NCBI GenBank assembly: GCA_001798885.1
Contig: MGQW01000008.1
Location: 1,146 to 65,145 of the forward strand
Direction: 5' to 3'
Origin: Deltaproteobacteria bacterium RBG_16_64_85
GTDB lineage: Bacteria; Desulfobacterota; Deferrimicrobia; Deferrimicrobiales; Deferrimicrobiaceae
Length of the DNA: 64,000 nt
Part shown: one piece after another, positions 16,937-31,468 of the stretch
Layout: each line of letters starts with the position of its first letter
Position numbering within the stretch: position 1 is the first letter of the stretch
The notes under the pieces: model-generated
Database searches by the model: none
Seen by the model: only the letters and a program-made list of their open reading frames with translations
What the model was told of the DNA's origin: nothing
Position numbers and translations under genes: made by a program

Positions 16937-17722
16937 TTGTTGTACAATTGGCTCGTGCCGACCACGGGGACGAAGAAGAAGATAGCCGACCTGGGAGCGG
17001 TCGCGTCGGGCCTGGCCCACGAGATCCGCAACCCGTTGAACTCCCTCTACATAAACGGCCAGCTCCTCGTAGAGATGCTTTCGGACCTCCCCGACAGCGA
17101 CAAGGCGCGCAAGGAAGAGCTTCTCTCGATGGCCCAGTCCAACCTGAAAGTTACCCAACGGCTGAAGGATCTTCTTACCGATTTCCTCAGGTTCGCCCGC
17201 CCCCCTTCCATGGAACTGATCCTAGCGGACCTGAACCGGGTCGTCGCCGAGACCGTCCGCTTCCTGGAGCTCGACTTTTCCCGCCGCGGAATCGAACTGA
17301 TCACGAAGCTTCACCAGGCGCCCCTTCCCCTGCTGGCCGACGAGAAACAGCTCAAGCAGGCGCTCCTGAACCTCCTGCTCAACGCCGAGGAGGCGATGGA
17401 CAAGAATTGCAAGCGGATCCGCGTGGTGACGGGGCTTTCGGGGGGCCGGCCCTTCGTGCGGGTGCAGGACAACGGGCGCGGGATCCCCCGGGCGGAGCGC
17501 AGTCAGATTTACCGGCTCTTCTTCACCACGAGGAAAAACGGCAGCGGGCTGGGGCTTCCCATCGTCCGGCAGATCGTCCGTGATCATGGCGGGAAGATCT
17601 CCATCCGCAGCCGCGAGGGGCGCGGGACGACGGCCACCATCCTCCTTCCCTCCGAAGCTCAGTTCAAGACGATGCTTTCGGGAAGATCGAAGAAGGGACT
17701 GCTTCCGGAGAAGGTCCGATGA
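16937..17722 (+). CDS. Soluble histidine kinase lacking a sensor domain (HisKA + HATPase_c only)
   Basis: H-box LAHEIRNPLNS within about 30 aa of the N-terminus; N-box LLLNAEEAM; G-boxes DNGRGIP and GSGLGLPIV; TTG start, no in-frame ATG upstream. Confidence 0.7.
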   Translation: MLYNWLVPTTGTKKKIADLGAVASGLAHEIRNPLNSLYINGQLLVEMLSDLPDSDKARKEELLSMAQSNLKVTQRLKDLLTDFLRFARPPSMELILADLNRVVAETVRFLELDFSRRGIELITKLHQAPLPLLADEKQLKQALLNLLLNAEEAMDKNCKRIRVVTGLSGGRPFVRVQDNGRGIPRAERSQIYRLFFTTRKNGSGLGLPIVRQIVRDHGGKISIRSREGRGTTATILLPSEAQFKTMLSGRSKKGLLPEKVR

Positions 17723-19083
17723 GGGGGAAGCCCCGCGTGATCGTCATCGACGACGACCCCGACAGCCTGGGAAGCGTCGCCGCCGCGCTGCGCCGGGACG
17801 GGTACGAAGTTCACCCGTTCTCGGATCCCCGGGAAGGGCTTTCGTACCTCTCCTCCGAGGGGGCGGACGTCGTCCTCACCGACCTGAAGATGCCGGGCCT
17901 GAGCGGGATGGAGGTGATCGGCCGGGTCGTCGCGGAGCACGCGGGGGTGTCGGTGGTGGTGCTCACCGCCTTCGGAACCGTTTACAACGCGGTGGAAGCG
18001 ATGCGCGCGGGCGCCTCGGACTTCCTCGAGAAGCCGGTGGGGATCCCGCAGCTGCGCGCCGCGGTGTTCAAGGCGGTGAAGGATCGGGAAAAGAACCGGG
18101 AGATCGAACAGCTGCGGGAGGAAATGGGGCAGCGGTACGGGCCGGAGGGGATCATCGCATTCTCGCGGGCGATGGAGGAGGTCATCCGGAAGATCCGGCT
18201 CGTCGCACCGACCCGGATGAACGTCCTCATCCAGGGAGAGAGCGGAACGGGGAAGGAGCTCGTGGCCCGGGCCATCCACGGCTTGAGCCCCAGGCGAAAC
18301 AAGCCGTTCCTCCCGCTGAACTGCGCCGCCATCCCCGAGAGCCTGCTGGAATCGGAGCTGTTCGGCCACGAGAAGGGGGCTTTTACCGGTGCCGTTGCCA
18401 CTCGCCAGGGGAAGATGGAGGCCGCGGAGGGGGGAACCCTTTTTCTCGACGAGGTCGGAGACATGGCCCAGCCGCTGCAGGCCAAGCTTTTGCGGGCGAT
18501 CGAACAGAAGGAGATTTCACGGGTCGGCGACTCGCAGGTGATCAAGGTCGACGTCAGGATCCTGGCCGCATCCAACCAGGATCTCAAGGAGCGGGTTGCG
18601 CAGAAGGCCTTCCGGGAAGACCTTTTCTACCGTCTTAACGTCTTCCGTATTATCGTGCCTCCTTTGCGGGACCGCAGGGACGACATCGCGCGGCTCGCCG
18701 ACCATTTCCTGCAGGAGATCGGACAGGAAAACAAGGCAGCGCCGAAGCGCCTCTCCGCCGGAACGCTCAAGGCGCTCCTCGCCTGCCGCTGGCCGGGGAA
18801 TGTGCGCGAGCTGAGAAACGCGATGGAGGTGGCCGCCCTCGTCGCCAGGGGAGAGGCGATCGAACCGGAGGACCTTCCGCCCGGAATCGTCGAAGGGAGC
18901 ATTCCTCCCTCGGCAGACGGGCCGATCCCGCTCCCCGCCATCAGGACCCTCGAGGAGATCGAGCGCGACGCCATCCGGGCAGCCCTGAAGGAAACGAAGG
19001 GGAACAAAAAGGAGACGGCGAAGATCCTGGGGATCGGCATTGCCACTCTTCACCGCAAGGTCAAGGAATACGGCATCTCTTGA
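17719..19083 (+). CDS. Sigma-54-dependent response regulator (NtrC family enhancer-binding protein: REC-AAA+-HTH)
   Basis: REC domain (VIVIDDDPD...DLKMPGLSG); sigma-54 interaction motifs GESGTGKE and GAFTGA; C-terminal Fis-type HTH; ATG overlaps the histidine kinase stop. Confidence 0.9.
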   Translation: MRGKPRVIVIDDDPDSLGSVAAALRRDGYEVHPFSDPREGLSYLSSEGADVVLTDLKMPGLSGMEVIGRVVAEHAGVSVVVLTAFGTVYNAVEAMRAGASDFLEKPVGIPQLRAAVFKAVKDREKNREIEQLREEMGQRYGPEGIIAFSRAMEEVIRKIRLVAPTRMNVLIQGESGTGKELVARAIHGLSPRRNKPFLPLNCAAIPESLLESELFGHEKGAFTGAVATRQGKMEAAEGGTLFLDEVGDMAQPLQAKLLRAIEQKEISRVGDSQVIKVDVRILAASNQDLKERVAQKAFREDLFYRLNVFRIIVPPLRDRRDDIARLADHFLQEIGQENKAAPKRLSAGTLKALLACRWPGNVRELRNAMEVAALVARGEAIEPEDLPPGIVEGSIPPSADGPIPLPAIRTLEEIERDAIRAALKETKGNKKETAKILGIGIATLHRKVKEYGIS

Positions 19084-19111
19084 TGGGGCATTGCGACCCC
19101 TGCCGAAGGAA

Positions 19112-28829: not shown

Positions 28830-28860
28830 GGCCCGCCCGGTCTCTTTCTCGGGGCGGGCC
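28830..28860 (+). terminator. GC-rich hairpin (GGCCCGCCC-N13-GGGCGGGCC) after htrA; weak U-tract
   Basis: 9-bp perfect stem 12 nt after the htrA stop; followed by GCTTTAC. Confidence 0.35.
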
Positions 28861-28876
28861 GCTTTACGGGGACCCG

Positions 28877-31468
28877 ATGATTTCCCTGGACAAGCTCACA
28901 ATCAAGTCCCAGGAGGCGCTTCAGGACTCGATCCGCATGGCTTCCGAGCGTGGGCACGCGCAGGTGGAGCCGGAGCACCTCTTTGCCGCCCTCCTGCGGC
29001 AGGAGGGCGGAATCGCGGACGACCTCTTCGCCCGGGCCGGCGTCACGCTCCCGCGTCTTCTCGCCGCCGCGGATTCTCTTCTGGCCGCATTTCCGAAGGT
29101 CTCGGGAGTCGTGACCCGTGGGCTCTCCCCCCGCATGGAGCCTCTCTTCAGCCGCGCCCTCTCCGAGGCGGACGCCTTCAAGGACGAGTACCTGTCCGCC
29201 GAACACTTTTTCCTGGCGTTCGCAGCGGAAGCCGGAGGCCAGGCAGCCGACCTGCTCCGGAAGCACGGGATCACCCGCGAGTCGCTCCTTTCCGCCCTCG
29301 CGTCGATCCGGGGGAGCCAGCGGATCACGGACGAGAATCCGGAAGACAAATACCAGGCGCTCGAGAAATACTGCCGGGATCTGACCGAGATGGCCCGGCG
29401 GGAGAAGCTCGACCCGGTGATCGGCCGGGACGATGTGATCCGGCGGGTGATCCAGGTTCTCTCGCGTCGGACGAAAAACAACCCGGTCCTGATCGGCGAC
29501 CCGGGCGTCGGCAAGACAGCGATCGCGGAGGGGCTGGCCCAGCGCGTCGTCACCGGCGACGTCCCGGAAGGGCTGAAGGACAAGCGGGTGCTGGCGCTGG
29601 ACATGGGCGCGCTGATCGCCGGGGCGAAGTACCGCGGGGAGTTCGAGGACCGGCTCAAGGCCGTGCTGAAGGAGATCGATGCCGCCGAAGGGCGCGTGAT
29701 CCTGTTCATCGACGAGCTCCACACGCTGGTCGGGGCGGGCAAGGCGGAAGGGGCGATGGACGCCTCCAACATGCTCAAGCCCGCGCTGGCGCGGGGGGAG
29801 CTGCGGTGCGTCGGCGCGACGACGGTGGACGAATACCGGAAAACCGTGGAAAAGGATGCCGCGCTCGAGCGGCGGTTCCAGCCGGTGCTCGTGGACGAGC
29901 CTTCGGTGGAGGACACGATCGCGATCCTCCGGGGGCTCAAGGGGCGATACGAGGTGCATCACGGCGTCCGGATCATGGATTCGGCGCTGGTCGCAGCGGC
30001 GACGCTCTCCCACCGGTACATCACCGACCGGTTCCTCCCCGACAAGGCGATCGACTTGATGGACGAGGCGGCGTCCAAGCTCAAGATTGAAATCGACTCC
30101 GTCCCCACCGTGATCGACGAGGTGGAAAGGAAGAAGATCCAGCTCGAAATGGAGAAGCAGGCGCTCTCGAAGGAAACCGACGCGGCGTCGAGGGAGCGGC
30201 GTGCGCGGATCGACGAGGAACTTTTGTCCCTGTCGCATGCGGCGTCGCGGCTCCGAGCCCGGTGGGGGGAGGAGAAGGAGTCGATCGCCAGGGGCCGGGC
30301 GGTCAAGGAACGCATCGAGCAAGCGGTCTCCGGAATGCAACGGGCGGAGCGCGAGGGGAACCTCGAGAAGGCGTCGGAGCTCAAGTACGGGACGATCCCG
30401 GCGCTTGCGCGCGAGGCGGAGGAGATCTCCCGGGCCGTCTCCGAACCGGGGGAGGAAGGCAGGCTCCTCAAGGAAGAGGTGGACGAGGAGGATATCGCGC
30501 AGGTCGTCTCCCGGTGGACGGGGATCCCGGTTTCGAGGCTGGTCGAGGGGGAGGTGCAAAAGCTCCTCAAGATGGAGGAACGCCTGGGAAAACGGGTCGT
30601 GGGGCAGGAGGAGGCCGTCCGGATGGTGTCCAGCGCGGTCCGGAGAGCCAAGTCGGGGCTGAAGGATCCCCGCCGGCCCATCGGGTCGTTCCTGTTCCTG
30701 GGGCCCACCGGAGTGGGGAAGACGGAGCTTGCCCGGGCGCTGGCGCAGTTCCTGTTCGACGACGAGTCCGCCATGGTTCGGCTCGACATGTCGGAGTACA
30801 TGGAGAAGCACTCCGTGGCCCGGATGATCGGCGCCCCGCCGGGGTACGTGGGCTACGAGGAGGGTGGTGCGCTGACCGAGGCCGTGCGCCGGAAGCCGTA
30901 CACGGTGATTCTGTTCGACGAGGTGGAGAAGGCCCACCCCGACGTTTTCAACATCCTCCTGCAGATCCTCGAGGACGGTCGGCTGACCGACGGGAAGGGG
31001 CGCACCGTCGACTTCCGGAACGCCGTGCTGGTCCTGACCTCCAACATCGGATCGCACTGGATCCAGGAAATGGCCGGGAAGGGGGAGGAGGTCATCCGCG
31101 ACCGCGTGATGGAGGAGCTCCGTCGGGCGTTTCGGCCCGAATTTCTGAACCGCCTGGACGAGATCCTCCTCTTCCGGGCATTGGGGAAGGAGCAACTGTC
31201 TGCGATCGTCGACCTTATGTTCCACGAGGTGAACCTCCGGCTGGCCGACCGGAAGCTGGCCGTGACCCTGACCTCGAAGGCCAGGGAGCGGCTCGCGGAC
31301 ATCGGATACGACCCGGCGTACGGGGCAAGGCCCCTGCGGCGGGCTATCCAGAAGCAGATCCAGGATCCCCTGGCGGTGAAAATCCTGCAGGGAGAGTTCC
31401 GCGAGGGCGATACCGTCCGGGTCGACGCCGACGCGAAAACGGGTTTCCGGTTTCAAAAGCATGGTTGA
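28877..31468 (+). CDS. clpB: Chaperone disaggregase ClpB
   Basis: 863 aa; two AAA+ modules (GDPGVGKTA and GPTGVGKTE) plus a long middle coiled-coil; N-terminus [16 protein letters not shown]. Confidence 0.95.

Follow-up and report, generated by a model that had tools for sequence, protein, structure and literature searches.

Heat-shock control of dnaK in bacteria is known to run through sigma-32, HrcA, HspR or CtsR. Sigma-54 has its own place in stress responses: in Escherichia coli the sigma-54 two-component system ZraS/ZraR controls the chaperone-like protein ZraP, and both zraP and ibpB are under sigma-54 control. In Myxococcus xanthus, the HsfB/HsfA phosphorelay activates the heat-shock gene lonD (Ueki & Inouye 2002, as cited in PMC9109919), and a 2025 matrix-based survey predicted an enrichment of sigma-54 sites at groEL/ES, ibpA, grpE, dnaJ and dnaK in Planctomycetota and Bacteroidota (PMC12316311). 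In Geobacter, Desulfuromonas and Desulfovibrio, by comparison, dnaK is under CIRCE/HrcA and/or sigma-32 (PMC545781). Here we analyse a 64-kb stretch of DNA of about 64% G+C (the window, whose positions are used throughout) from Deltaproteobacteria bacterium RBG_16_64_85, a member of the uncultured, iron-reducing lineage MBNT15/Deferrimicrobiota (PMC9386147), in which genes for a histidine kinase and an NtrC-family enhancer-binding protein precede a gene for a CheY-like protein, dnaK and a cluster of further chaperone and protease genes (Table 1).

We suggest that a sigma-54/two-component module conserved in MBNT15/Deferrimicrobiota drives the genes cheY-dnaK-hsp20-hsp20-dnaJ, which we consider the likely explanation of this locus even with its inferred steps included. 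The part of it that concerns a putative sigma-54 promoter served by the adjacent NtrC-type system is supported by a footprint across 42 orthologous loci, by dyads at fixed positions that co-vary with the activator's helix-turn-helix (HTH), and by the persistence of the promoter beside cheY-dnaK in loci where insertions have moved the activator gene away. Control of this kind had been proposed in a preliminary description of the same DNA, and it stands as far as the promoter, its two-component system and the CheY-like and dnaK genes are concerned; the heat-shock part of that proposal comes from gene content. We found no description in the literature of a circuit of this kind, or of any gene regulation in MBNT15.

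The preliminary description drew attention to a 9-of-10 match to the sigma-54 core ahead of the CheY-like gene, and this match, TGGCACGGAACTTGT (19259-19273, + strand), is the sole one with at most one mismatch in the window. Shuffled windows yield a mean of 1.91 such matches, and at least one in 88 of 100 shuffles, so that the match is not significant taken singly and the case therefore rests on its position and on its conservation. The comparative sample comprised 42 orthologous loci (10 genome loci, 3 reached via exact-protein look-ups and 31 metagenome loci), from which 37 distinct orthologous 30-mers were aligned. In this alignment GG and TTG are invariant and C, A, C, G and G nearly so, giving the core TGGCACG-N4-TTG with a GG-N10-G spacing that is exact in all 37, and the positions flanking the core carry almost no information, the whole spacer being only 52% identical. 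Across the 42 loci, the GG precedes the start of the CheY-like gene mostly by 39-43 nt; one subclade has 53-59 nt, and L022, with a possibly misannotated start, 73 nt. Transcription is predicted from this arrangement to start near 19285, 15 nt before the GTG of the CheY-like gene.

The position of the canonical C in the -12 element is a T in the window (T 27, G 7, A 2 and C 1 across the 37 sequences). According to PMC4551910, 96% of sigma-54 promoters keep this C, which helps to restrain basal transcription. The E. coli pspA promoter, TGGCACGCAAATTGT, has the same TGGCAC-N5-TTGT core and is strictly PspF- and sigma-54-dependent; because it carries TTGT, we treat TTGT as a proven functional -12 element and the missing C as a feature of note that does not run counter to a sigma-54 promoter. 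A scan of 368 kb of lineage DNA gave no other TGGCA[CT]G-N4-TTG and no extra copy of the dyads plus promoter, so we do not extend the regulon further. The frequency of such matches in shuffled DNA and the absent C could be taken to mean that TGGCAC-N5-TTGT is a chance or non-promoter sequence and that the kinase-activator pair regulates unlinked genes, but this is highly improbable: the core is invariant in distinct orthologues within diverged spacers, holds a fixed distance to the start codon, is unique in the lineage DNA scanned, and is accompanied by matched dyads and an AT tract, the dyads co-varying with the HTH of the adjacent activator. Conservation at this level appears close to a refutation.

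Two 15-bp dyads are the predicted upstream activator sites. Measured from the GG, their centres lie upstream by about 135 and 103 bp, varying by a few bp among loci, and so fall in the range of 80-200 bp expected of such sites; site 1 is fixed at -134 to -139 in the 12 measured loci and is visible as a dyad in nearly all 37 sequences, and the centre-to-centre distance is 32-34 bp, or about three helical turns, in all measured loci. The dyads fall into two classes, TATCA-N-TGATA in the window's clade and TGCCA-N3-TGGCA everywhere else, and with zero exceptions the first is found with the HTH sequence GNKKE..LGIG[I/V]ATLHRK and the second with GNKTQ..LGIGLRTLHRK. Where the recognition helix starts with Ala in place of Arg, both half-sites of both dyads show G·C-to-A·T changes, a co-variation as would be expected if the activator binds them. 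An enhancer role had earlier been given to two GATTCGACG direct repeats, which are indeed present at 19112-19120 and 19162-19170. We rejected that role, as the repeats are not enriched (3 copies in the window against 1.75 expected), are not conserved in relatives and merely flank or overlap the dyads, to which we assign it instead. The AT-rich tract reported upstream of the promoter is present and conserved, with 22-25 of 30 positions A/T in 11 of 12 loci, and is a probable bending or IHF-type region; an integration host factor (IHF) site proper was considered and dropped on account of weak consensus matches.

The promoter also stays with cheY-dnaK in five loci with unrelated insertions after the activator gene (L008, L045, L047, L050 and L052). 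Both dyads are kept in L008, and at least one clear dyad in each of the other four. Since the promoter is retained beside cheY-dnaK when the activator is displaced, the site seems to be maintained for action in trans. The spacer between activator and promoter is an insertion hot spot (L008 11363-19340, L007 6700-11644, L045 1-2600, L052 1-2100). L008 carries purL, NUDIX and outer-membrane protein genes there, L007 multihaem cytochromes, L045 McrBC and L052 a toxin-antitoxin pair, ParDE.

Gene order around the promoter is similarly stable. The activator gene is 72-93% identical to its counterparts in ten contigs of metagenome-assembled genomes (MAGs) labelled Candidatus Deferrimicrobiaceae or “Deltaproteobacteria bacterium”. 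In every locus long enough, the CheY-like gene is followed immediately by dnaK, and in relatives the kinase-activator pair usually precedes the CheY-like gene. From htpX onward the order is kept to the contig end, into clpB in L002 and L021 and through htrA in L009. More distant activator homologues in L011 (Acidobacteria), L012 (Pirellulales), L013 (Aminicenantes), L014 and L018 were rejected as orthologues and taken as paralogues because no chaperone genes adjoin them.

Every gene of the module and chaperone cluster named in the preliminary description is backed by both Pfam and NCBIfam profiles, the latter with their equivalog cut-offs. The activator has all the parts of an enhancer-binding response regulator, including GAFTGA at residue 220, a Walker A motif, the phospho-acceptor Asp of the receiver and a Fis-type HTH. 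Its nearest solved structure, aligned over the full length, is Aquifex NtrC1 (4L4U/1NY5). It falls under the NCBIfam equivalog cut-off of every named orthologue group compared (NtrC, AtoC, ZraR, GlrR, LuxO, FlbD and others), with best scores of 439 bits against cut-offs of 558.6 (NtrC) and 714 (AtoC), and 385 against 760 for ZraR. In the NtrC1/DctD class, the unphosphorylated receiver and a coiled-coil linker hold the ATPase as an inactive dimer, and phosphorylation frees it for ring assembly. The start of the activator gene overlaps the kinase stop in an ATGA, and the activator is translationally coupled to the kinase.

The kinase is sensor-less, as had been described, and the kinases of relatives are just as short (254 aa in L021). 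Its nearest NCBIfam transmitter domains are those of AtoS and ZraS, both far under cut-off (ZraS, 150 against 479 bits). Such resemblance of kinase and activator to AtoS/ZraS and AtoC/ZraR, together with a promoter core equal to that of pspA, the presence of the envelope quality-control proteases HtpX and HtrA, and two lipoprotein genes of no assigned family just upstream on the same strand, is compatible with a real two-component system and sigma-54 promoter that answer not to temperature but, for example, to envelope, metal, redox or detergent stress, as in ZraSR-ZraP or PspF-pspA, with DnaK, the small heat-shock proteins (sHsps), HtpX and HtrA forming a general regulon for proteotoxic or envelope damage. 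We think this unlikely: the kinase has no transmembrane or periplasmic part and therefore no means of direct envelope sensing, htpX and htrA lie behind a promoter-like element of their own, and the genes directly behind the sigma-54 promoter encode cytoplasmic chaperones.

Among the chaperones, DnaK and ClpB are canonical, but the earlier description of the cluster as the central chaperone set is borne out only in part, grpE and groESL being in neither the cluster nor the window. The DnaJ-like protein has a single zinc centre, with no more than two CxxCxGxG motifs, and its score of 298 is under the NCBIfam DnaJ cut-off of 377 bits; relatives have one or two hsp20 copies. D10, D57 and K107 of the CheY-like protein do not vary among 19 homologues, nor does an RRMWAV motif. 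Its homologues are all at least 59% identical among the matches listed; few are named, and these mostly bear the label Deltaproteobacteria or Deferrimicrobiaceae.

Table 1. Genes and predicted regulatory elements of the module and chaperone cluster, in window positions
Feature	Position	Strand	Remarks
Sigma-70-like -10 element TTGTTGTACAAT	16937..16948	+	DNA-level conservation in 17 loci
Histidine kinase gene	16937..17722	+	Pfam HisKA + HATPase_c only; at most 261 aa; H-box HEIRNPL; cytoplasmic, without sensor domain
NtrC-family enhancer-binding response regulator gene	17719..19083	+	Pfam REC (2e-25), Sigma54_activat (6.5e-72), HTH_8 (6e-15)
Upstream activator site 1 (predicted), dyad CGATCAAAATGATAG	19119..19133	.	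Centre 134 bp upstream of promoter GG
Upstream activator site 2 (predicted), imperfect dyad CTCTCAATTTGATTC	19152..19166	.	Centre 101 bp upstream of GG, 33 bp from site 1
AT-rich tract	19199..19228	.	24/30 A/T in a 64% G+C genome; between enhancer and promoter
Sigma-54 (-24/-12) promoter core TGGCACGGAACTTGTT	19259..19274	+	Conserved across 42 loci
CheY-like single-domain response regulator gene	19300..19677	+	Pfam Response_reg; 125 aa; GTG start; first gene of the predicted sigma-54 unit
dnaK (canonical Hsp70)	19709..21619	+	NCBIfam DnaK equivalog passed, 996 bits against cut-off 648; about 740 bits to E. coli DnaK structures
G+C-rich stem-loop after dnaK	21638..21658	+	No T tract; equivalent hairpins in relatives
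hsp20, first copy	21676..22128	+	Pfam HSP20
hsp20, second copy	22212..22664	+	Pfam HSP20
dnaJ-like gene	22671..23669	+	Pfam J domain + C-terminal domain; last gene of the inferred sigma-54 unit
Sigma-70-like -10 element TTGTCTATAAT	23671..23681	+	dnaJ-htpX spacer
htpX	23742..24605	+	Pfam/NCBIfam
Clp ATPase gene	24589..26904	+	771 aa; PDB matches closest to ClpC
DUF1844 gene	26905..27357	+	Pfam/NCBIfam
htrA	27354..28817	+	Pfam/NCBIfam
clpB	28877..31468	+	ClpB equivalog cut-off passed

How far transcription from the sigma-54 promoter would extend is suggested by the spacers of the cluster. In agreement with the preliminary description, which saw no terminator on the way into the dnaK cluster, no T-tailed terminator is present on the + strand from 19300 to 31468. 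The stem-loop after dnaK may serve to stabilise or attenuate the message between cistrons; the first hsp20 is followed by a similar one (within 22129-22211) and htrA by another hairpin, all of them without a T tract. The dnaK gene begins 31 nt after the CheY-like gene, and the spacer between the two is 31-55 nt in the loci compared, poorly conserved except for the ribosome-binding site. This spacer bears on the proposal that the sigma-54 promoter serves mainly CheY-like feedback, dnaK and the chaperones downstream being transcribed chiefly from undetected sigma-70 or sigma-32 promoters in or after the CheY-like gene, with sigma-54 giving a stress boost only. DnaK is normally required at all temperatures, sigma-70-like -10 boxes occur elsewhere in the cluster (at 16937 and 23671), and promoters in this lineage are uncharacterised, so that motif scans can miss them. 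We hold this arrangement to be possible but doubtful, as the spacer keeps little beyond the ribosome-binding site, no locus covering both cheY and dnaK has them apart, the + strand lacks TAnAAT from 19300 to 23670, and the intergenic regions contain no sigma-32-like site.

The reading of all 12 kb as a single sigma-54 unit, which had been put forward earlier, probably does not hold, as the conserved TTGTCTATAAT before htpX implies at least one additional promoter. In all five loci that cover the dnaJ-htpX spacer, TATAATGGAATC[A/G]ATAC is invariant, and the pattern T[TG]G[TG]-N0-2-TAnAAT has only two matches on the + strand of the window, the elements at 16937 and 23671. The latter is thus a probable separate promoter for htpX to clpB, genes that are tightly packed with overlapping or abutting junctions and that may also receive read-through from the sigma-54 unit. 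A second sigma-54 promoter at this place was considered and rejected: L002 has GG-N10-GC, and the GC is not kept in L009 or L021. Within TTGTCTATAATGGAATCAATAC (23671-23692), a stretch of 17 nt is invariant across the five loci, and because this exceeds what a -10 hexamer needs, it may also be the binding site of a regulator. Because a conserved -10 element precedes htpX, the sigma-54 unit is most safely drawn as cheY-dnaK-hsp20-hsp20-dnaJ, and the most economical reading has three units: kinase and activator (sigma-70-like), cheY to dnaJ (sigma-54) and htpX to clpB (sigma-70-like). A good sigma-70 consensus promoter, TTGACA-17-TATGTT, at 31561-31589 marks the end of the chaperone cluster; it follows clpB closely and precedes GHMP-kinase (ispE-like) and spoVG genes.

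The element ahead of the kinase reads TTGTTGTA[C/G/A]AAT across the 17 loci, with CTGTTGTAGAAT in L032 and L041, and a GGAAT box upstream of it is conserved in most of them. From this conservation, TTGTTGTACAAT is a probable promoter of the kinase-activator operon. It makes up the first 12 nt of the called kinase open reading frame (ORF) and overlaps the mechanically called TTG start, which we regard as a probable miscall because of that overlap; the true start is probably the GTG at 16955, 7 nt downstream of the -10 box and in agreement with the gene call in L021. The kinase-activator mRNA would then possibly be leaderless.

Scans for the better-known heat-shock elements were negative, as a first inspection by eye had been for CIRCE and sigma-32 promoters ahead of dnaK and the hsp20 genes. 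CIRCE, TTAGCACTC-N9-GAGTGCTAA, is missing from the window even when 5 mismatches are allowed, and from the 368 kb of lineage DNA when 4 are. The sigma-32 consensus CTTGAAA-N13-17-CCCCATNT is matched with up to 3 mismatches only inside coding regions and nowhere in intergenic DNA, although the consensus scans for sigma-32 and sigma-70 are crude, that for sigma-32 being weak enough for divergent sites to escape. Rfam elements (ROSE and other RNA thermometers, and riboswitches), searched from 15000 to 33000 at E<=1, gave only a tRNA. No grpE, groESL, hrcA, rpoH or rpoN gene lies within the 64-kb window.

Several other features of the window lie beside the module. Two paralogous predicted lipoprotein genes (15493-16149 and 16252-16890, +; lipobox IAGC and LAGC) immediately precede the kinase on its own strand. 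They match no Pfam or NCBIfam family, and at least one copy occupies that place in most of the genome loci checked. The second has a G+C content at third codon positions (GC3) of 0.67, against 0.82-0.90 for its neighbours. We discounted a 256-aa minus-strand ORF at 16164-16934 as a shadow of this second lipoprotein ORF on the + strand, which is the better conserved of the two. Before these, at 11182-15373, are genes for RtcB, a methyltransferase and a class A penicillin-binding protein (PBP; minus strand). L021 keeps this neighbourhood, with Archease and a Metallophos gene in addition before RtcB. In other bacteria rtcB is often under sigma-54/RtcR; no RtcR activator gene stands beside rtcB in the 11182-15373 neighbourhood. 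The dcaR locus of M. xanthus (PMC11287280) was looked at as a parallel and not used, the likeness (kinase, RNA cyclase, lipoprotein, PBP) being superficial and the figure legend mixing two loci. Elsewhere, a sigma-54-like AGGCACGGCATTTGAT at 5543-5558, 26 nt before a gene for a BcrAD/BadFG-type CoA-enzyme activase (5570-8656), has GG-N10-GA and no activator gene nearby, and may be due to chance. On the other side of the cluster are a tRNA gene at 32867-32937 and a low-G+C island at 38000-41000 (0.52-0.60 against 0.64) that may be horizontally acquired, with genes for a multihaem cytochrome c (38861-39910, GC3 0.48) and an OsmC-like protein (40046-40600, minus strand).

Based on these observations, we propose the following model. 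A sigma-70-like promoter would provide the sensor-less kinase and the NtrC1-like response regulator, and the phosphorylated activator would bind the two dyads, at about -160 and -128 relative to the predicted start and on the same face of the helix. Bending at the AT-rich tract would let the activator loop to sigma-54 RNA polymerase on TGGCACGGAACTTGTT, where ATP hydrolysis would open the promoter and yield a transcript for the CheY-like protein, DnaK, two sHsps and the DnaJ-like protein; htpX and the genes for the ClpC-like ATPase, DUF1844, HtrA and ClpB would be expressed from their own -10-like element, perhaps with read-through. Judging from gene content, the signal would be heat or proteotoxic stress, which the kinase might sense directly (through temperature-dependent autophosphorylation or a shift in its kinase/phosphatase balance) or via titration of DnaK/DnaJ by unfolded proteins. 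The co-transcribed CheY-like receiver might compete for phosphoryl groups of the kinase and so act as a phosphate sink, giving negative feedback and a transient response. The kinase and the separate CheY-like protein could thus be a functionally split version of the hybrid kinase HsfB. What sequence and comparison show of this model is the promoter architecture before the canonical dnaK, its conservation and the co-variation of the activator with its predicted sites.

A number of points weigh against this model. All the organisms compared are uncultured MAGs and the evidence is computational throughout. The canonical -12 C is present in only one of the 37 orthologues, and the IHF consensus is matched only weakly, 2 of 37 loci having it exactly and 19 of 37 with up to one mismatch. 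The co-variation of dyads and HTH is a single evolutionary event and not statistically independent, the inducing signal is a guess from gene content, and rpoN is not among the genes of the window. Moreover, a strictly enhancer-dependent promoter gives no obvious basal expression of DnaK, which is normally needed, and there may be an undetected second promoter or a second copy of dnaK. A bolder version of the model extends to the whole candidate phylum: its cytoplasmic Hsp70 system would depend entirely on enhancer-dependent sigma-54, with no sigma-32 or HrcA; the minimal kinase, or the coiled-coil-linked NtrC1-type activator, would itself be the thermometer or be held off by DnaK; the CheY-like phosphate sink would time the shut-off; and the near-universal loss of the repressive -12 C would give heat-enhanced, activator-independent basal activity. 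We regard this combination as quite improbable.

The likeness to HsfB/HsfA that had been suggested for this locus is apt in its logic: a histidine kinase and an NtrC-like sigma-54 activator act on a heat-shock or protein-quality-control gene, and an extra receiver domain takes part in the phosphorelay. The parts differ. HsfB, as presented in PMC9109919, is a hybrid with its own receiver, unlike the kinase here, which has none and is matched by a separate CheY-like gene inside the regulated operon. The HsfA targets given there are lonD, the one known as a heat-shock gene, with secondary-metabolite genes and pilY1, unlike the dnaK, sHsp and dnaJ genes of this operon; no lon gene is in the cluster. 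The E. coli PspF/pspA system resembles this one in its TGGCAC-N5-TTGT core type, upstream activator site, AT-rich IHF region and stress-protective output. PspF, however, has no receiver, is controlled by the binding of PspA and has a membrane-stress output, whereas the module described here is linked to a kinase and would have Hsp70 as its output. ZraS/ZraR likewise provides NtrC-type two-component control of a chaperone-type gene and is the highest-scoring NCBIfam similarity class for kinase and activator; ZraS has a periplasmic sensor, however, and the proteins here score far under the ZraS/ZraR cut-offs and have a cytoplasmic target.

Direct thermosensing by a sensor-less kinase has a precedent in Hik34 of Synechocystis. 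Regulation by Hik34 is bidirectional; cyanobacteria are not known to possess sigma-54, and the output regulator of Hik34 is not known to be of the enhancer-binding kind. This kinase is soluble, without a transmembrane segment, and affects hspA, clpB1, dnaK2 and groEL2, and its autophosphorylation is temperature-dependent; it has no recognisable ATP-binding motifs (PMC4390874), in contrast to the kinase here with its HATPase_c domain. Geobacter, Desulfuromonas and Desulfovibrio, the nearest well-studied relatives, share the targets dnaK, dnaJ and clp but differ in mechanism, no CIRCE- or sigma-32-like site having been found here. The survey of Planctomycetota and Bacteroidota (PMC12316311) consists of position-matrix predictions in other phyla and, in the part of it available to us, names neither a cognate two-component system or enhancer nor MBNT15.

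Sigma-54 stress operons and two-component control of chaperones thus both have precedents, and the circuit is no new category. A conserved sigma-54/two-component circuit before a canonical dnaK would nevertheless add another mode of chaperone control. The system is compact and testable, combining a sensor-less kinase, an NtrC1-like activator with defined, if predicted, sites, a promoter without the -12 C and a single-domain receiver within the operon, and it lets one ask how a kinase without a sensor domain perceives folding stress or temperature. The putative activator dyad, sigma-54 core and sigma-70-like -10 element would be the first regulatory motifs for MBNT15/Deferrimicrobiota, and may be used to define regulons in this lineage.

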